DNA of 64,000 nt, from positions 192,001-256,000 of the forward strand of contig CAWFFN010000005.1 of assembly GCA_963815115.1 (NCBI GenBank), given 5' to 3'. Under the pieces are notes generated by a model. The model was not told where the DNA came from. It worked only from the letters and a program-made list of their open reading frames with translations, and did no database searches. The number at the start of each line of letters is the position of its first letter. The stretch's first letter is position 1. The translations under genes and the position numbers were made by a program. Below are positions 34,419 through 44,190 of this stretch, one piece after another. This DNA comes from an uncultured delta proteobacterium (GTDB lineage: Bacteria; Desulfobacterota; Binatia; DP-6).

Positions 34419-36431
34419 GTGCGCGCACCCAGGCTCGGGGTCACTGCGGTCTGCACCGCGATCGCGATCGCGGTCGCGGCCGTCCGGCTGCTGGCGCCCG
34501 TGCCGCTCGAGGTCCTCGATCGCAAGTTTCTCGACTTCCGCCACCTGATCCGCGGGCGCGTCACCGCGAGCGACCGCGTCGTGATCGTCGCCATCGACGA
34601 GCCCAGCCTCGCGCGATTCGGCCGCTGGCCCTGGCCGCGGGCGCGGCTGGCAGAGCTGATCGACCGGCTGGACGCCGCCGGGGTCGCGGCCATCGGCCTC
34701 GACGTGGTCCTCGATCAGCCGGTCACGGCGATCGATCGGCGAGACCTGGAGGCCGCGCTCGATGCGGATCCGCAGCGGCCGGCCGCGGCGCTCCGCGACG
34801 TGGTGCGAGCCGAGCTCGACGACGACGTGCGGCTCGCGGCCGCCCTGCAACGCAGCGGACGCGTGGTGCTGGCGCATTTCTACGAGTTCGGCGGCGCAGC
34901 GACGCCCGAGCTGACCCGGGCGACCGCAGGGCTGCCCGAGCTGACCGTGCTCGCGGTCGCCGGGACGAGACTCGCCGGCGTTCCGGGACCTCCCGAGGCG
35001 ACCCGCGCGCGTCTGCCGGTCGCGCCGCTCGTGGCGGCGGCGGCGGGCACCGGTCACATCAACTTCGCCCCCGATCCGGACGGGATCTACCGCCGCCTGC
35101 CGATCGCCGTTCGCGTCGGCGACCGGCTGATCCCGTCGCTCGCCCTCGAGCTGCTCCGCGTCTCGGACAGCGCCGCCGCCAGCGTCACCGTGGCGCCGGA
35201 AGGCATCCGGACGGCGCGGGCGGGGCCGCTCGAGTTGCCCGTGGACGGTGCGGGGCAGCTCTGGCTCGACTTTCTCGGTCCGCCGCGAACGGTCACGACG
35301 GTCGGCGCGGGCGAGGTGCTCACCGGCCAGGTGCCCGCCGGCCAGCTCGCCGGCCGCATCGCGCTGATCGGCTTCACGGCGGCGGGCTTCGACGAGGTGT
35401 CGACGCCCTTTGCCGCCGTCGTGCCCGGCGTCGAGCTCCAGGCGACCGTCCTCGACAACGTGCTCCTCGGAAGGTCACTGCGCCATCCGTGGTGGCTCGT
35501 GCCTGCCGAGGCGCTGGTGATCCTCATGATCGGCCTGGTGGTCGGGCCCGCGCTCCGCTGGCTGCGCGGCGGCTGGGGAACCGCGGCCGCGCTGCTGCTC
35601 GCGCTGGTCTACTTCGCGGTCACGCAGGTGCTCTTCACGCGCGCGGGGCTCGCGCTCGGCGGTCTCTACCCGCTCGTCGCGCTGGTCCTCTGCATGGCGG
35701 GCGGCGCGGCCTACCTCTCGGTCGTGGAGGAGGGGGAGAAGCGGAAGATCCGCGCCGCGTTCCGGCAGTACGTGAACCCCGAGATCGCCGATCTCATCGC
35801 GAGCGTCCCATCGCACCTGCGTCTCGGCGGCGAGCGGCGGCCCATCAGCGTGCTGTTCTCGGACATCCGGGGATTCTCGAGCATCGCCGAGCATCTGCCG
35901 CCCGAGACGCTCGGCGAGATGCTCGGCGAGTACCTCGAGGCGATGACCGACGTCGTGTTCGCGCACGGCGGCCTCCTCGACAAGTACATCGGCGACGCCG
36001 TCATGGCGTTCTGGGGCGCGCCGGCACCGGCCGAGGACCACGCCGCCCGCTGCTGCCGGGCGGCACTCGACATGATGGCCGCGCTCGAGCGCCTGAACCA
36101 GCGCTGGGCCGATGCGGGGCTGCCGCGTCTCGGGATCCGCATCGGCATCAGCTCGGGAGACGCCATCGTCGGCAACTTCGGCTCCTCCCGCCGCTTCAGC
36201 TACACGGCGGTAGGCGACACGGTAAACCTGGGCTCTCGTCTCGAGCGGCTGAACGAGGAATTCGGGACCGACGTGCTGATCTCCGACGACACCCATGCCG
36301 AGATCGGCGAGGAGTTCGTCTGCCGCGAGGTCGGTCGCACGGCCGTCAAGGGGAGAACCCAGTTGACCACCGTCTACGAGCTGGTCGGACGGCGCTGCGA
36401 TGCGCCCGCGGCCGGCTCGGGATCCGGCTAG
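34419..36431 (+). CDS. CHASE2-domain class III adenylate cyclase
   Basis: IDEPSL..GRWPWPR, DPDG..RR, PGVE; three TMs; FSDIRGF, DKYIGDAVMA and GDTVNLGSRLE. Confidence 0.93.
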   Translation: MRAPRLGVTAVCTAIAIAVAAVRLLAPVPLEVLDRKFLDFRHLIRGRVTASDRVVIVAIDEPSLARFGRWPWPRARLAELIDRLDAAGVAAIGLDVVLDQPVTAIDRRDLEAALDADPQRPAAALRDVVRAELDDDVRLAAALQRSGRVVLAHFYEFGGAATPELTRATAGLPELTVLAVAGTRLAGVPGPPEATRARLPVAPLVAAAAGTGHINFAPDPDGIYRRLPIAVRVGDRLIPSLALELLRVSDSAAASVTVAPEGIRTARAGPLELPVDGAGQLWLDFLGPPRTVTTVGAGEVLTGQVPAGQLAGRIALIGFTAAGFDEVSTPFAAVVPGVELQATVLDNVLLGRSLRHPWWLVPAEALVILMIGLVVGPALRWLRGGWGTAAALLLALVYFAVTQVLFTRAGLALGGLYPLVALVLCMAGGAAYLSVVEEGEKRKIRAAFRQYVNPEIADLIASVPSHLRLGGERRPISVLFSDIRGFSSIAEHLPPETLGEMLGEYLEAMTDVVFAHGGLLDKYIGDAVMAFWGAPAPAEDHAARCCRAALDMMAALERLNQRWADAGLPRLGIRIGISSGDAIVGNFGSSRRFSYTAVGDTVNLGSRLERLNEEFGTDVLISDDTHAEIGEEFVCREVGRTAVKGRTQLTTVYELVGRRCDAPAAGSGSG

Positions 36432-38707
36432 CGGGACCGCACCGAGGGCACGGCGCAGCGCACCTGCAGCCGGAGCGTCTTCAGGTCGTCTCCGATCGTG
36501 CGGGCGTCGTTCGCCAGTGCCGAGACCTCGGCCGCCACGCTTCCGCGACGGGAGCGCGGCGCGAGCAGGGCTCGGGCGATCGTCACCAGGCGGCGCGCAC
36601 GGCGCAGGCGCGCGCGCGCCGGACGGACGCTCCCGTCGGCGCAGGCGGTATCGGCATCGCGCGTGACGGCGGTCGCGCGGTCGAGCTGCTTCAGGATGCG
36701 CGGCCCGGGACGCCCCAGGTCCGTGGCCGCCCGGGCCGCGGCGCCGAGCGCGTCGAGGCGGCACTCGAGCGAGGTGAAGCTCGCGCCGGAGGGGCAGCCG
36801 CCATCGACCGGCGGCACCGTCGTGGTGGTGACGCCGCCCCCGGGCGCCGTCGTCGTCGGCTGCCCCGCCGCGGTGGTGGTCGTCACCGTCGCGGTCGTCG
36901 TCGTACGCGGTGGGCGCGTGGTCGTCGAGGTCGTGGTCGTCACGGTGGCGCCCACCGGGGCAGTGCACGGCGAGAACTCCGAGGTGTCGCCGTCGCGCGT
37001 GGTGGCGGTCGCGGTCAGGATGCGCCCCGCGGGCAGCGGATCCACCGGCGACAGCGAGAAGGTCGCGTGGCCCGCCGCGTCGGTGGTGACCATGACGGAG
37101 CCGAGTGACGTCTCGCCCTGCCCGTTGCCGTCCGGGCAGTCCGCGTTCGAGAACACCTCGATCGTGACCTGCGTCCCGGCGGTGGTGCCCAGCGTGCCCG
37201 CCACGGAGATCGCGCCGACCACGAGCAGCGGCGTGAGGTCGGGAGAGTTCTGCAGCCCGTTCGGGCCGCCGTCCGCGTCGTGCGGGTCGTTCGGCGTGAA
37301 GCCGTCGGCGCCGAGGTCGATGCCGCGTCCGGTGTTGTCGCGGATCCGGTTGCCCGTGATCGCGTTCCCCGTCCCCGATCTGACCGCCACGCCGCTCTGC
37401 ACGTTGGACGCGATGAGATTGGAGGTGCCGCCGCCGATCGTGTTGTCGCTGCCCGCGACCTGCACGCCGTTCAGCCCGTTGGGAATCGCGATCGTACCGT
37501 CCCGGGAGGTTCCGATCACGTTGCCCTGCACGAACTGGTTGCTCGACTGGCTCACGTTGACGCCATTGCCGGTGTTCCCGGAGACCACGTTGCCGCCGCC
37601 GCTGGTGCCGACGTGGTTCGCGGCCGTGCAGTTCAGGACCCGGATGCCGCTGGCGTTGGGCAGCGCGGCGGTGCCTGCGGCGGTCGTCCCCACCAGGTTG
37701 CCGAAGATCTTGTTGCCGCCCTCGTCCACGTTCTGCACGTCGATGCCGACGCCCGTGTTCCCGGAGACGACGTTGCCGGAGTTGCTCGACGTGCCGCCGA
37801 CGGTGTTCCGGTTGGCCTCGGCGATGACGATACCAGCGCCGTTCTGAACTGCGACGCTGCCGGTGGCGTCGGTGCCGATGTAGTTGCCCAGCACCTTGTT
37901 CGACTGGGTCTCCTTGTCTCGCAGGCTGATGCCGATGACGTTGCCGGAGATGACGTTGCGTCCGGTCGGGCTGGTGAGACCGACGGACGTGCCCGTCGCA
38001 CCGAGCGCGATGCGTACGCCGGCCTTGCTGTTCCCGATGGGCGAGCCGTTGGTGCCGAGCCCGATCACGTTGCCCTCGACGACATTGCCTACCGAGGCGG
38101 CGCCCTCGACGGCGACGCCGTTGCCGTTCCCCGAGATCACGTTGCCCGCTCCGGTCGTGGTGCCGCCGATGGTGTTGGCGGGCGAGCCGTTCACCCAGAT
38201 GCCGCGGAGCATGTCGGGCCCGACCTTCACCGTGCCCGTCGCGTCCAGTCCGACGATGCAGCCCGTCACGGTGCTGCCGCCCAGGGGCGAGGCGCCACCG
38301 CCACCGGCGAGCTGTATCCCGTAGGTGACGAAGCCGTTGACGACGAGCCCGCGCACGGTGCTCGCGCCGCCGCCCACCAGGAGCCCGCCGTCGAGCGTCC
38401 CGCCGCCGCTGATCACGACCGCGCCCCCGGTCTGCATGCTGCCGTCGATGACGACCGGGCTGGTGATCTCGGGCAGCAGGCTGGTCAGCGAGATCGTCGG
38501 GATGCCCGTCCCATCGATCGTGAAGTCGATGGTGTCCGGCCCCGGATGCGCCGTTTCGTCGTTCGCCTGCGTGATGGCGTCGCGCAGCGTCCCCGCGCGG
38601 CCGTCGTCGGCGGCGCTCGTGACGGTGAAGGTCGCGGCCCGGGCCGGCGCGCACACGCCCGCCGCGGCGGCGACGACGAAGGAGAAAGCTAGGAGGCGAG
38701 GGTGCAC
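36428..38707 (-). CDS. Secreted right-handed beta-helix protein (CSLREA-like start) with Thr linker
   Basis: ATFTVT..GTLRDAITQAN, repeated GNVISGN/GNYIGT, GDTSEFS. Confidence 0.85.
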   Translation of the reverse strand: MHPRLLAFSFVVAAAAGVCAPARAATFTVTSAADDGRAGTLRDAITQANDETAHPGPDTIDFTIDGTGIPTISLTSLLPEITSPVVIDGSMQTGGAVVISGGGTLDGGLLVGGGASTVRGLVVNGFVTYGIQLAGGGGASPLGGSTVTGCIVGLDATGTVKVGPDMLRGIWVNGSPANTIGGTTTGAGNVISGNGNGVAVEGAASVGNVVEGNVIGLGTNGSPIGNSKAGVRIALGATGTSVGLTSPTGRNVISGNVIGISLRDKETQSNKVLGNYIGTDATGSVAVQNGAGIVIAEANRNTVGGTSSNSGNVVSGNTGVGIDVQNVDEGGNKIFGNLVGTTAAGTAALPNASGIRVLNCTAANHVGTSGGGNVVSGNTGNGVNVSQSSNQFVQGNVIGTSRDGTIAIPNGLNGVQVAGSDNTIGGGTSNLIASNVQSGVAVRSGTGNAITGNRIRDNTGRGIDLGADGFTPNDPHDADGGPNGLQNSPDLTPLLVVGAISVAGTLGTTAGTQVTIEVFSNADCPDGNGQGETSLGSVMVTTDAAGHATFSLSPVDPLPAGRILTATATTRDGDTSEFSPCTAPVGATVTTTTSTTTRPPRTTTTATVTTTTAAGQPTTTAPGGGVTTTTVPPVDGGCPSGASFTSLECRLDALGAAARAATDLGRPGPRILKQLDRATAVTRDADTACADGSVRPARARLRRARRLVTIARALLAPRSRRGSVAAEVSALANDARTIGDDLKTLRLQVRCAVPSVRSR

Positions 38708-38893
38708 ACGCAATCCGCGGGACCGGGCGGTCGACCTGTCGAACGTACGGGCGGTCCTCGCCGCGCGCAAGGTGGACCAAGGGGCAGATCGCCGTTGCGC
38801 GACTGCACGCAGCGGGTGGGGATGCACGACGGGCGAGGCCTTGGCGCGGCTCCGGCCGGATGGCTACCAAGTGCGAGGTTCGGCGAGGAGAGG

Positions 38894-39025
38894 AGATACG
38901 CATAGCAATGAAGACGGGCTGCCCTGCGCTGCGATACGGTTCGCGGCGGAAATGCGGATGCCGTGCGGATGAGACGGCGCCAGCCTCGCCGCGCGAGCCA
39001 GAGCGTCCACGGAGGGCGGTCCGTC
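38894..39025 (+). mobile_element. Orphan IS110-like left end / putative bridge-RNA-like structured element (copy A)
   Basis: Similar to 40957-41062; closing stem gacgggctgccct/agggcggtccgtc; no transposase follows. Confidence 0.55.
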
Positions 39026-39090
39026 ACGGCGTCCCCGGCTACGTCCCGCTGCGGCAGGGTGTCGACGAACGAGGGCCGGCCCGACGGCCC

Positions 39091-39132
39091 AAAAGGGAAG
39101 CCCCCGGGTCCCGCTCGGGACCCGGGGGCTTC
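39091..39132 (-). terminator. Rho-independent terminator
   Basis: Perfect 16-bp stem (gaagcccccgggtccc/gggacccgggggcttc) then CCTTTT on the minus strand, about 25 nt after the stop at 39158. Confidence 0.8.
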
Positions 39133-39157
39133 TGGTCGAATCTGGACCTAGCAGACG

Positions 39158-40813
39158 CTAGTTGTGCGCGAGGAACGTACCCGGGAGGGATACGGCGCCC
39201 GGGCCAGGCAGGTCGGCAGCGAAGTTCACCAACCCGTTGGCGGTCGACGCGATACAGAAGACGGATGCCAGCGTCGCCGTCGCCGGTACACCCGGGGTGA
39301 CAGAGCTGGCCGGGGCGCCGTTCTCGATGATGGTCTGACAGGTCGGCTGGCCGAAGCACCCATTCGTGCCGGGGCTTCCCCCTGGCCGGGGCAGAACGTG
39401 CCGGTGGCATTGTTCGCGTTGGCAATGCCCGTGGTGAGTGGCGAGAGATCGACCGCGATCGGGCCGACGATCGTGCCGTCGACGCAGCCGTCGTGCCCGG
39501 GGACGCCGGCCTGGCAGTCCTTCGGAGAGGGGCCGACGCCGCCGGTCAGGCAGTCACGCGTGTACCCGGTGGAGCTGACGGTCGTGCAAGCCATCGTGGC
39601 CCGCGGGCCGCGGTCGCAGAAGCCCGTCTTCGGGCTGGCCGGGGTGCCGCTGAGGATCGCGCCGGTACCGCCGGCGCCGGCGCGGCACGCGGGGCAGGGC
39701 TGCGCCAGGTTGCCCGTGAGGTACGTGGTGGAGGTGAGCGAGATGTTCGTGCTCGAGGTGCCGGTGGACAGGTCGACCGTGCCGCTCGAATCAGCGGCGA
39801 AGGTGTTCAGCACGCAGGTGGTCAGGTTGGGCAGGGACGCGTTCGGGATCGGCAGCGGCGTGCCGAAGTTGCAGCCCGTGCTGCTGCAGTCGGGGAGCGC
39901 GCTGTTCACGGGAGGCGTGGTGTGCGACGCGGTAATCGCGCAGCTCGTTCCCGTGCAGCTCAGCCCGAAGCGGCTCTGCGAGCCGTCGGGCGTCGGTCCC
40001 TCTCCCACGGTCGAGGCGCCGCCCCCGATGTTGAGACCACCGCAATGTGAGGGTCTTGATCACAGTGTTGGACCCGTCCCGCGCCGAACCGCAGGTGCCA
40101 CCCGGGAGGCCGTTGGCGAAGTCGAGGATGGTCGGGGGCGGCGGCGGGGTCGTCAGGTTGAAGATGTCGAGCGCGAAGGCGTCGACCTTGGCCTCCATGG
40201 CCGCGACGTCGATGGGGGTCAGGCAGTCGTTCGGGACCTTCGCATAGAGCTTCGCGAAGCAGCCCTTCGTCGGGTCGGCGCCGCCGTCGAACTTGTCCGT
40301 TGCCTTCTGGAGGCAGGCGGGGTCGACCGGGAGGTTCTTGCCGGCCGCCTTGTTGTAGCAGCCGAGCACCGCCTTCACCTTGTTGGCGACGCACTTCTTC
40401 TTGCCCGCCGAGCACTTGCTCAGCACGGGCGCCGGGTAGCCGGGATCGAGCTCTTGCACCACGTCGAGCACGAAGGCGTCCGACTTGTTCTCGAGGAGCG
40501 CGATGAATCCGCTACCACTGTTCGGGCAGGGCGACTTCACCAGGTCCTTCTCGGCCTTGTCCATGCAGCCCTTGGCCGGGAGCGTGAACTTCTGCTCGGC
40601 CTTCGTGATGCACTCGGGATCTACCGCCACGTTCTTCCCCTCGGCCTTGTTGTGACAGCCGAGGAAGGCGGTGGCCTTGCCGCTGACGCACTTGATCTGC
40701 GCCGCGCTACACTTGAACGTGGTCGGTGGCCCGGCCGCCTGTGCGCCGATCGCGCCGAGCAGGAGCGCCGCCGCCGACAGCGTGGCCGCCCCGTACATCG
40801 CGACTCGCTTCAT
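39158..40813 (-). CDS. Secreted Cys-rich protein (frameshifts near 40047 and 39380)
   Basis: Signal peptide, two K/C-rich repeats; repaired frames read LTCGGLNIGGG and LASVFCIASTANGLVNFAADLPGPGAVSLPGTFLAHN*. Confidence 0.8.
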
Positions 40814-40956
40814 ACCTTGACCCCCCCTCTTTTTTTTGGCTTGGTGAATCGACGTCTACTGCCGTGAGGTGTAAACTCGACCCGCGTTCGGCGTCAAGCA
40901 GCTGTTTCGACATTTTGCATCCGCCTAAGACATGGCGGTTCGATGAATAGGTCGGC

Positions 40957-41092
40957 AGATAGCCGTAGCAATGAAGACGGCCTGCCCTCCGCCGCGATGC
41001 GGTTCGCGGTGGCCCACGGGGGTCAGCCGAGACGGCGCCCCAAACTGCAGGAGGGCAGCCCGATGGAATGCTACGTGGGATTGGACGTGCAC
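40957..41092 (+). mobile_element. IS110-family remnant: structured left end (copy B) plus first 10 transposase codons
   Basis: GGAGG RBS, ATG 41063, MECYVGLDVH resembles the IS110 RuvC-like N-terminus; the RBS is paired in stem ctgccctcc/ggagggcag. Confidence 0.7.
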
Positions 41093-41099
41093 ATCTCCT

Positions 41100-41503
41100 A
41101 CCGGACGCCCGAGCCGCGCTCGTTCGTGCTCTCGCAGGCGTCACCGTCACTGCCGGCACACGATGTCGTTCGCCAGCACGGTCGACAGGACGGCGGCGAC
41201 GACGACGAGCGGCGCGCGCAACGTACCCGGTCCGAGATTCGCCACCGCCACCCACCGCGTCACGTGGTCGTAGAAGCCCCTCACCCGGAGCTGCACCGAG
41301 ACGACCATCAGGCCGAACAGGAGGAAGAGCGTGGCCGCGTCGATGGACTGCCATGCCTGCTGCGGAGACTCGAGCTCGGTGGCGACCAGCACGATGGCCT
41401 CGAGGAGCGCGGCCTCATCCGGTCCAGCGCCAGGCCCCGGAATCCCTCCCAGCAGCGTGGCCAGGTAGACCAGCGCGAAGGCGGCGAGGACGGGCGTCGT
41501 CAC
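41100..41503 (-). pseudogene. Truncated ArsB/NhaD/CitMHS-like anion transporter
   Basis: IDAATLFLLFGLMVVS and LANDIVC motifs; compensating frameshifts in GLALDR; ends at the IS110 remnant. Confidence 0.75.
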
Positions 41504-41987
41504 GACGGGGCACGCTCGGCAGCGAGTCGTCGCAGGACGGGACCGAGACCGGCGAGCAGCCGCTCGTGGAGCGCGGGCGCGGACTGCTCCAGGTCTGCCG
41601 AGACCTCCGCCTGGACGGCGGCATAGGCGCGCTCACGCCCCTGCGTGACGAGCGACTCGAGCTTCCGATCGCGCAGCAGCACGCGCAAGGCCGCCGCCGG
41701 CAGCGGGACGGTCTTCGTCCACTCGCCGACCGAGGCACGGCTCAGGTCGAACAGGCCCGCGGTGACCGCGAAGGCGCCGAGGGCGCCGATCAGGAAGCCG
41801 ATCGGGCCCGTCGTGTGCAGCAGCGTCGAGACGATCGCGAGGCCGAGCGTATGACCGATGCCGCCGCTGACGGTGCCGGCTGCGAGCGCGACGGCGGTCG
41901 ACACCGTCACGGTGATGGCCTCCGTGAGCTCGTCGCTCAGCACGCCCCCGGGATTGCCCGAGCCGGCGACCGGCAGGGTGCCGAGGG
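41487..41987. repeat. 501-bp direct repeat, copy 1 (duplicated 3' end of gene 43703-45568)
   Basis: Matches 43690-44190 (offset 2203) with 6 mismatches counted by eye. Confidence 0.95.
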
Positions 41988-42740
41988 GCCGGTTTCAACT
42001 CCTCTCGGCTCTGCCTCCAATGTCGCGCCTTGCCGGCTCCTGGCTCTGCTGCGACGGACGAGGTTGCATCTGGGTTGCGTATCGTCGTCGCACGGCCGGC
42101 GTGCGCCAGGTGTCCATCGGTATCCCCGGTTAGGCGGATGCTGATGGCCATCCGGTCTTTTTGTGTACGCCAGGCACCTTGGGCGAGCCGCCGGCTGGAG
42201 TACGAGCGCCCAAAGTCATGGATACGGGTGCACTCGCAGTTGGCTGTGTTGCTTGCCCCTGATCTCCCTATCTGCTAGCTGATCCCAACATGAGCTCGGT
42301 AAACAGGGGCCTTGCAGTTGCTGCTTGCATCATTGTCCCTCTTGTCAGCTCGCGTGTTGCGGATCCTCGACACACTCCCCAAGAGCGACACAACCGCCGT
42401 CCAAACCCACCGCGGTTTCACCGCAAACCTGGCCCAGGGTGCGAGCAATCTTCTTGCCACCTATGAGAGCCTCCCAGGTTGGAGTGGTGCACTACAGCCG
42501 TCGTGCGTGCACGGACGGGCTACGTGTACTCTGGGGGTTGCGAGGCTGGAACACCGCCGGCCTGCGCTCGTGAGCATAGGCGACGGTGCTGAAGCAGGTG
42601 GCTGCCAATACTTCTTCCGAGGGCATCAGCATCGGAAAGGTAAAATGCGCAGTGACCGAATCCACCCGTCCGAAGGTATGCAAGCCGTGGCGCTGGAAGA
42701 ATCAGCGGCTCAACGTGAGCGCCACTGCCGGGGGTACATT

Positions 42741-43127
42741 ATGAAGAATCGGCAGCTCATTGTCTGGTTCGCGGTGTTGCTGGCGAGCGCTGTTGCCGGG
42801 TGTGCGACCGCGCGTTCGACGACAGGTAAGGACTTCGACACGTCGAAGGTGTCGCGGATTGTCAAAGGAGAGACAACGGCGGCTCAGTTAGTGGAGATGT
42901 TCGGTACCCCTCAATCAAAACAGCCGGAAGCCAACGGTGGCGAGCGTTGGTCTTACTCCTACGCTGATGCTACGGCCCATGCATCGTCTTTCTTCACGAC
43001 GAAGGTCACGACTGAGGGGTACAAGAAGAACTTAGCAGTCTTGTTGGATGCTTCTGGGAAGGTGACCAACTTCACCTTGGACGAAGGGCCGATCCCGAAG
43101 CAGACGACCACCTCGCACCAGTTCTGA
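42741..43127 (+). CDS. Lipoprotein with SmpA/OmlA(BamE)-like domain, lower GC
   Basis: VAGC lipobox; [21 protein letters not shown]. Confidence 0.8.
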
Positions 43128-43147
43128 CTAGGCGAGTTGCTCGGTCT

Positions 43148-43400
43148 GTGCTGACGGCGCGCACGCGGAAGCGCGGCGTCTCGCCGAGCCGTACGTCGGA
43201 GCCCATGGGCGCCGGGCCGCAGGGCGCGTTCTCGAGGTCGAACCAGAGGAGGATCCGCTCGCCGCTCGTCCCGTACACCTCGCGCCGCCGGAGCGCGTCC
43301 CAGATGCTGTCCCGATCGCGGCCCGCCGCGTGGACCGCGACGAGGCCGGCCGTCATGAAGAACGACGCGTGGCGCTCGAAGTCGAGCACCTGGAAGTTCT
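43148..43400 (-). pseudogene. Internal fragment of a DUF3604-family gene
   Basis: [39 protein letters not shown]; both ends missing. Confidence 0.7.
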
Positions 43401-43689
43401 GCAGTCCCGGCGGCGGATTCGACGGAATCGAAGGCCACCGATTGGCCCTCGGGCGGCTGCGGGCCGGCGGGCGCAGTCTGGAGATAGGCGGGAAAACGGC
43501 CCTTTCGGCGAAAGCTGACCGACCATCCCATCGCGGACCTTCACCCGTCCTTCGCCCTTCTGCAGGGACGGAGGCGTCAATGCCCCCGGCGCCGGTGGCG
43601 GGCGAAGGTGGTGAGGAGCCGGGACACGCGGATCGGAAGGTACGAAGTCGTAGTCCTGTGTCAGGTATCCCTCTGACCTACCGACGGCC

Positions 43690-44190
43690 AGGACGGGCGT
43701 CGTCACGACGGGGCACGCTCGGCAGCGAGTCGTCGCAGGACGGGACCGAGACCGGCGAGCAGCCGCTCGTGGAGCGCGGGCGCGGACTGCTCCAGGTCCG
43801 CCGAGACCTCCGCCTTGACGGCGGCATAGGCGCGTTCACGCCCCTGCGTGACGAGCGACTCGAGCTTCCGATCGCGCAGCAGCACGCGCAAGGCCGCCGC
43901 CGGCAGCGGGACGGTCTTCGTCCACTCGCCGACCGAGGCACGGCTCAGGTCGAACAGGCCCGCGGTGACCGCGAAGGCGCCGAGGGCGCCGATCAGGAAG
44001 CCGATCGGGCCCGTCGTGTGCAGCAGCGTCGAGACGATCGCGAGGCCGAGCGTATGACCGATGCCGCCGCTGACGGTGCCAGCTGCGAGCGCGACGGCGG
44101 TCGATACCGTCACGGTGATGGCCTCCGTGAGCTCGTCGCTCAGCACGCCCCCGGGATTGCCCGAGCCGGCGACCGGCAGCGTGCCGAGGG
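43690..44190. repeat. 501-bp direct repeat, copy 2
   Basis: Matches 41487-41987. Confidence 0.95.

Follow-up and report, generated by a model that had tools for sequence, protein, structure and literature searches.

Organization of the locus

The window is a stretch of 64,000 nucleotides from an uncultured delta proteobacterium, a Binatia-like soil bacterium, and corresponds to C5:192001-256000 of genome G000, which comprises 6.9 Mb in 12 contigs with a G+C content of 70%. It carries two related noncoding stretches, copies A and B, on either side of a gene for a Cys-rich secreted protein (Table 1). A prediction made earlier from the sequence alone (the original prediction) described them as IS110-family left ends that had lost the recombinase gene, which is correct for both copies, and as bridge-RNA-like elements that were possibly domesticated. 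The latter is not supported; against it stand the position of the guide words in the right end (RE) of the parent insertion sequence (IS), its IS1111-type layout, and the right ends of the two copies, which are junctions with host genes. Copies A and B are best read as decayed, truncated relics of an IS1111-type element, here called IS-A, with no function of their own; the probability of this reading is estimated at about 0.8.

The relationship of the two stretches and their direct orientation were confirmed, as copy B used as a 151-nt query recovers copy A (86% identity over 56 nt, E 1.2e-11). Six further places in G000 are related to copies A and B. An nhmmer profile made from 18 left ends (LE) and run against the 6.9-Mb genome matched copy B along its full length (window 40960-41065, E 1.1e-22) and copy A over 50 nt alone (window 38901-38950, E 2.8e-8); copy A is therefore shorter and more decayed than was first thought. 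The elements said to be common to both copies are all found in the window (TAGCAATGAAGACGG..CTGCCCT, the CCGCGA/TCGCGG hairpin and GAGACGGCGCC). The GCCG..CGGC stem is complete in copy B, but its 5' arm is gone in copy A. Copy B passes through GGAGG and the ATG into transposase sequence and then loses similarity, and the distances to the divergent genes also hold, with 185 nt from copy A to the GTG at 38707 and 142 nt from copy B to the ATG at 40813. The possibility that A and B are recent duplicates of each other was rejected, since their left flanks and interiors differ.

Host genes are truncated at the right ends of both copies. Window 38991-40933 is a 93% paralogue of G000:C9:650138-652086, a segment with an intact gene for a 551-aa Cys-rich secreted protein and the start of a gene for a 530-aa membrane protein. 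No LE fragment was found on either side of this C9 segment. The deletion junction between copy A and host DNA lies at 38990/38991. The 3' third of the stretch originally assigned to copy A (38991-39025) thus belongs to the host-gene paralogue and is not IS-derived; the closing GGAGGGCGG represents codons 4-6 of the membrane-protein stump, and what passed for variable loops in copy A consists of decay and non-homologous host DNA. The stump shows three local differences from the C9 gene, each a synonymous third-position change. At copy B, the missing 3' part of a CitMHS-family transporter gene falls at the truncation point, and the orthologue in the sister genome G003 covers the whole profile. 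From the truncated host genes at both right ends it follows that each IS lost its body and RE plus a part of the adjoining host gene.

Table 1. Features of the window around copies A and B (positions refer to the window)
Feature	Position	Strand	Remarks
Secreted beta-helix (NosD-like) gene	36428..38707	-	Pfam NosD 8.4e-08, Beta_helix 4.5e-4
Left flank of copy A	38892..38900	+	5/8 positions weakly fit the IS-A right-end guide word
Copy A, IS-A LE remnant	38901..38981	+	Left inverted repeat 38908-38924, hairpin P2; 38901-38950 profile-supported, then decayed with a small duplication up to 38981
Unassigned 9 nt between copy A remnant and host DNA	38982-38990
Membrane-protein stump, 12 codons (5' end)	38992..39027	-	VTDRPPWTLWLA; paralogue of the 530-aa membrane-protein gene (G000:C9:650174)
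G+C-rich hairpin 3' of the Cys-rich protein gene	39085..39143	-	Also in the C9 paralogue
Cys-rich secreted-protein gene	39158..40813	-	Large paralogue family; no Pfam family
Left flank of copy B	40955..40963	+	8/8 positions equal the IS-A guide word CAGATAGC
Copy B, IS-A LE remnant	40964..41093	+	Left inverted repeat 40971-40987
Copy B, arms of stem P1	40979-40990 and 41050-41061		One C-C mismatch
Copy B, translation start	41050 (GGAGG), 41063 (ATG)		Shine-Dalgarno GGAGG; 10 codons, MECYVGLDVH; truncation after 41093
CitMHS-family transporter gene, N-terminal fragment	41147..41632	-	Profile positions 14-100 of 336

The parent element

A single full-length copy of IS-A is present in G000 (C5:1374836 to about 1376345). 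Together with at least 15 related loci in other genomes, it bears out the expectation that the motif precedes IS110-family transposases. The N-terminal DEDD_Tnp_IS110 domain (PF01548) was found at C5:1374955-1375398 with 46.3 bits (cut-off 29), and the C-terminal Transposase_20 domain (PF02371) at C5:1375607-1375852 with 94.7 bits in a different frame, which places one frameshift near C5:1375446-1375454; this frameshift may be real or an assembly error. Transposase_20 is missing from both window copies, and copy B codes for the first 10 transposase residues only. The N-terminal 165 aa of IS-A, used as a query, retrieved one other place in G000, a 552-nt fragment at C5:76393, and the genome holds only two N-terminal domains of this type, one frameshifted and one truncated. 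Of 25 genomes of the order, G000 included, 5 have relatives with 62-73% amino acid identity, and such relatives are also present at 22 loci in metagenome-assembled genomes from soil.

The element's ends and its size of about 1.5 kb were set by four near-identical copies in the sister genome G004. The layout was surveyed in 20 copies of the IS-A clade, in which repeats were scanned with up to 3 mismatches. Counted from the ATG, the left inverted repeat is 88-101 nt upstream and the right one 1277-1464 nt downstream; the ATGAAGACGGGCTG-type left repeat and its right-end complement, 14-17 bp long, were each recognized in 14 of the 20 copies. The transposase has 365-371 aa in 10 of the 20. The LE measures about 100-140 nt, and the RE about 240-360 nt in the copies with a transposase of this size. 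The long subterminal repeats, the short LE and the long RE assign IS-A to the IS1111 group, and it is a previously undescribed IS1111-type element of the IS110 family from uncultured Binatia-like bacteria. According to Durrant et al. 2024 (PMC11208160) and Siddiquee et al. 2024 (PMC11187229), the guide RNA of the IS1111 group, a bridge RNA or seekRNA, is encoded in the 3' noncoding region past tnp, and the latter study describes a left end that reaches 7 bp past its repeat. The extension expected on the right is 3 bp. Such extensions are compatible with the present data. Read by eye, the right repeats show T(T/G)GAC(A/C) in 9 of 9 aligned copies. In a circle junction with the 3-bp and 7-bp extensions, this hexamer would stand 17 bp from TA(G/T)C(A/G)A, a spacing that fits the junction promoter of the family, and a solo left end would be without the -35 half of the putative promoter.

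Structure of the left end

Analysis of 18 left ends with RNAalifold yielded 23 pairs, four of them with changes on both sides, so that the fold does show covariation. In the closing stem (P1, 10 pairs), the GGAGG/ATG region is paired with the left repeat's inner half, and two hairpins lie within the stem; one pair of P1 is C-G in 11 sequences and U-A in 7. A folding energy of -72.5 kcal/mol (z -6.4) was obtained for the leader of the full-length copy, whose start codon is paired too. The LE fold is a leader structure in which the left repeat is paired with the Shine-Dalgarno sequence and start codon of the transposase gene. By analogy with ISPpu9, it would occlude the translation signals. A conserved and covarying fold at the end of an IS110-family element need not be a bridge RNA, and in IS1111-type elements the left end holds the transposase leader and an inverted repeat while the guide lies at the opposite end. 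Neither window 36000-44000 nor three full IS loci gave a relevant Rfam match. One broken pair each was seen in four of four alignable solo fragments, three of these in P1, as compared with none at all in 9 of 14 transposase-linked copies. Alignment artefacts account for part of the broken pairs counted in L055, L056 and L063.

In a separate observation, the invariant leader word ACGGGGTCA was seen to complement a conserved RE word, TGACCCCG(G/T), for example at L003:1560-1570 and L003:2766-2775. The match could reflect long-range pairing within the transcript or a shared protein-binding word.

Location of the guide

The RE contains a conserved block of the form GTGACCCCGG ... TGGGGCC ... CGACCCCGAATGG. 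The 18 nt ahead of TGGGGCC vary by IS type, and in 4 of 7 IS types they share a word of 8-9 nt with the DNA abutting the left repeat of the same element. Scored by position over the 7 types, the sharing averages 6.9 for own flanks and 4.27 for non-own flanks (maximum 7, n=48). The guide word of IS-A, CAGATAGC, was compared with the 8 nt left of eight LEs of IS-A type in the genus and agrees at 8, 8, 7, 6, 6, 5, 5 and 5 positions; in the background, 0.27% reach at least 6 of 8. These left flanks vary far more between copies than the IS interior. The variable 8 nt, together with the 7-bp left extension, suggest the left half of a target, and under the same extension rule window 38892-38900 is probably the left half of the target of copy A. 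Each solo fragment with a guide-matched left flank is consequently taken as an independent, guide-conforming insertion. A second guide-like word (ATGGGTGA or ATGGACG) follows CGACCCCG and was compared by eye with the right terminus; it comes in just two states. Other scorings were less clear: an earlier ungapped scoring of RE and LE words in 5 IS types gave a weak signal, and whole-RE scoring was noisy (own 8.5, other 7.0, maximum 11).

The LE behaves differently. The original prediction suggested testing its loops for complementarity to flanking DNA; no own-specific words were found between LE interior and flanks (own 6.5, other 6.27), and IS types with different flanks have almost the same loops. 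Taken together, the guide RNA of IS-A is predicted to be encoded in the RE and not in the LE, as judged from word sharing between RE and insertion sites. The case is a worked example of how leader and guide can be told apart from sequence by comparing such words across IS variants, and of how host DNA beside a deletion junction can pass for variable loops.

These results bear directly on the proposal that the copies serve as recombination sites or as bridge RNAs, orphan or domesticated, which act with a recombinase in trans to shuffle or regulate surface-protein cassettes. The proposal draws on the direct arrangement of the fragments around a secreted-protein gene, each fragment being divergent from such a gene, on the conserved and covarying fold, on further IS110-family transposase genes in G000 that have long open frames, and on orphan copies of an IS110-family small-RNA module known for ISPpu9 (PMC12288879). 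It is nevertheless very improbable, since the element is IS1111-type with its guide words in the RE, the loops and closing stem assigned to copy A are host DNA, and the right ends of both copies are deletion scars. The borders of the paralogous segment do not coincide with the LE ends, and its C9 counterpart lacks an LE. The suspected association with secreted-protein genes did not extend beyond the window: none of the three other solos in G000 adjoins such a gene, their neighbours being SerRS/UPF0102/amidase, S15 peptidase/HWE kinase and PCMT-esterase/epimerase genes. The state of the two N-terminal domains of IS-A type in the genome and the lack of an Rfam match also speak against it.

Solo fragments and their origin

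Solo fragments also occur in G003 and G004, in unrelated contexts, and neither the arrangement of the window nor insertions at the same locus were found in four sister genomes. Eight solos end on the right after about 86, 90, 107, 139, 143, 172, 180 and 552 nt, all different, and no RE sequence follows any of them. An origin by insertion of the IS body into an older repeat of about 100 nt was rejected, because solos reach 33-450 nt into the open reading frame. The scatter of the right ends is also a point against miniature inverted-repeat transposable elements (MITEs) delimited by the left repeat and an inverted copy of it at the Shine-Dalgarno sequence, and mobilized in trans like MITEPpu9. 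The 3' arm of P1 does resemble the right inverted repeat, the solo at C8:121648 stops directly after this arm, and ISPpu9/MITEPpu9 offers a precedent (PMC12288879). Yet the right ends differ in 8 of 8 aligned solos without shared end boxes, and copies A and B abut truncated host genes rather than target sequence, with no RE after the solos, which makes this explanation scarcely credible. A weak LE-like match was noted on the minus strand at G000:C8:121334-121385 (E 1.2e-4), about 270 nt from the C8:121648 solo and inverted to it.

Contigs from four soil-metagenome runs are just 139-479 nt long. One of them crosses the left junction of copy B with zero differences. Another extends beyond 41093 into transposase sequence with 8 differences and hence stems from a different IS copy. 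No contig spans copy A, and no excision joint was found among these contigs, the depth being too low to prove anything. A look-up of RNA runs that contain the stretch listed none.

In the favoured reading, as relics of IS-A, the element would have inserted twice and independently in the window, and both copies would later have been truncated. What each fragment retains is the left end, made up of several terminal bases, the left subterminal inverted repeat and, in whole or in part, the transposase leader of about 100 nt; in the intact element this leader most likely throttles translation of the transposase, as suggested by the structured 5' untranslated region (5'-UTR) of ISPpu9. The guide RNA would be coded in the long noncoding region 3' of the transposase gene, a region gone from both fragments. 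The deletions would have started within the IS and extended rightwards into the adjoining DNA, leaving a 12-codon membrane-protein stump at copy A and a stump of one-third of the transporter at copy B. The location near secreted-protein genes would then be due to chance placement of guide-matching target words in a rearrangement-prone accessory region.

Several observations weigh against this reading. The remnant census, in which genomes G000-G004, G025 and G026 were searched with matching queries, gave 10 LE-anchored, 1 RE-anchored and 3 internal truncated copies, and in 7 of the 10 LE-anchored copies the truncation point is no more than about 180 nt from the left end; this excess is not what random decay predicts. 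The retained guide-matched left junction and left repeat could in principle be used by an active IS-A recombinase. Copy A can form a P1-like stem of 13 bp with sequence from the host-gene stump, and its fold has a minimum free energy of -68.3 (z -2.55), with 2 of 200 shuffles equally good; the stem is read as fortuitous, although this cannot be proved. The frameshift of IS-A and the indels in the bracketed gene, described below, could be assembly errors.

The LE-anchored excess is the main argument for the view that the fragments are by-products of a regular process linked to the recombinase, for example failed excision in which the right junction is broken and resected while the left end is held in the complex; they might stay usable as half-sites that promote further deletions. 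The bias of 10 to 1, the clustering of 7 of 10 truncation points near the left end, the loss of DNA right of the IS in both window copies and the retention of guide-matched left junctions are consistent with it, as is the stepwise, top-strand-first transfer reported for an IS110 element in a preprint. On the other side, the remnant sample is small and phylogenetically clumped, and copies within one genus are not independent. G025 and G026 have active-looking copies yet no short LE solos, the truncation points are scattered without a single defined site, and no such mechanism was found described for the IS110 family in the consulted parts of the literature. This view is regarded as unlikely. 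The same low standing is given to the broader notion that LE relics, rather than being random debris, might be left regularly by IS1111-type elements whose bridge recombination fails or is one-ended, with the right junction broken and resected along with host genes and the left side protected. Since a guide-matched junction and the left repeat are retained, the relics would remain usable half-sites and landing pads. If true, IS1111-type elements would reshape accessory regions such as the present one by pruning and reshuffling them. The LE-anchored excess, if upheld in a larger census, could inform how these recombinases fail.

Comparison with known elements

Like ISEc11, IS4321/IS5075 and IS1111, IS-A has DEDD and Transposase_20 domains, subterminal repeats of 14-17 bp, a short LE and a long RE. 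As in elements of the IS1111 group, it inserts site-specifically, with right-end words that agree with the insertion site. It departs from them in that all that is left of it in G000 is one full copy with a frameshift plus truncated left ends, the window copies being devoid of transposase and guide region. IS621, of the IS110 group, has an LE bridge RNA of 177 nt whose two internal loops pair with the target and the donor. IS-A shares with it a recombinase of the same family and a structured noncoding region 5' of the transposase gene, but its LE of about 100 nt forms a multi-branch fold with small, near-invariant loops and has no own-flank words and no Rfam match.

For ISPpu9, a structured 5'-UTR was reported to occlude the translation signals of the transposase, and MITEPpu9 was reported to have defined A'/B' boxes at both ends and to form minicircles (Pares-Guillen et al. 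2025, PMC12288879). IS-A would resemble this pair in having a leader fold over the translation signals and resembles it in the presence of part-elements apart from the transposase gene; unlike MITEPpu9, as described there, the IS-A solos have variable right ends at deletion junctions. With ordinary partial IS copies made by deletion, the solos share one intact end, the joining of the other to truncated host genes, point mutations and the absence of conservation across species. The marked left-anchored excess (10 to 1) is unlike such copies.

Neighbouring genes and further observations

The NosD-like gene divergent from copy A begins with a GTG at 38707, followed by a signal-peptide-like N-terminus. 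Compared with the intact 551-aa copy at C9:650306-651961, the Cys-rich secreted-protein gene between copies A and B is broken by two 1-nt indels, one near 39378 and one near 40048. The paralogues are otherwise about 90% alike, but window 40050-40600 (about 550 bp) is 100% identical to G000:C9:651199-651750, and this tract is probably the result of gene conversion. Many members of the family occur in G000, G002 and G003. The hairpin downstream of the gene was not called by a simple terminator scan, and a match to mir-769 at 39085-39143 is spurious. A promoter and terminator scan of 38600-41300 returned 0 and 0 sites.

To the right of copy B, a direct duplication of 506 bp (98.6% identity) comprises the 3' end of a DUF2868 gene (window 41482-41987 and 43685-44190). 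The 1.7 kb between the duplicates (41988-43684) is lower in G+C (0.63, falling to 0.56), occurs nowhere else in the genome and matched no Pfam family. The region is uninterrupted in the sister genome G003.

A second IS110-family element, IS-B, is 1572 bp long, with a left end of about 314 nt and a short right end, and is present in four near-identical copies (G000:C9:341963-343534, 352679, 366037 and 428601). Its first 91 nt or so occur alone about 14 times, in two sequence types with sharp ends on both sides, including C5: 1393802, 1397549, 1400724, 1402431, 1404582, 1418356 and 1418990, and C9: 322800, 357345, 367600 and 416563. One of these solos immediately follows a full IS-B copy. The full-length IS-A (within G000:C5:1374800-1376420) sits 10 nt inside the left end of a 91-nt element of IS-B type, with the first 10 nt of that element on its left and the remainder on its right; an IS1111-type element can therefore target the left terminus of another IS110-family element. 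The 91-nt unit may be a MITE-like or target element, and the IS-B solos look closer than the window copies to what the original prediction had in mind.

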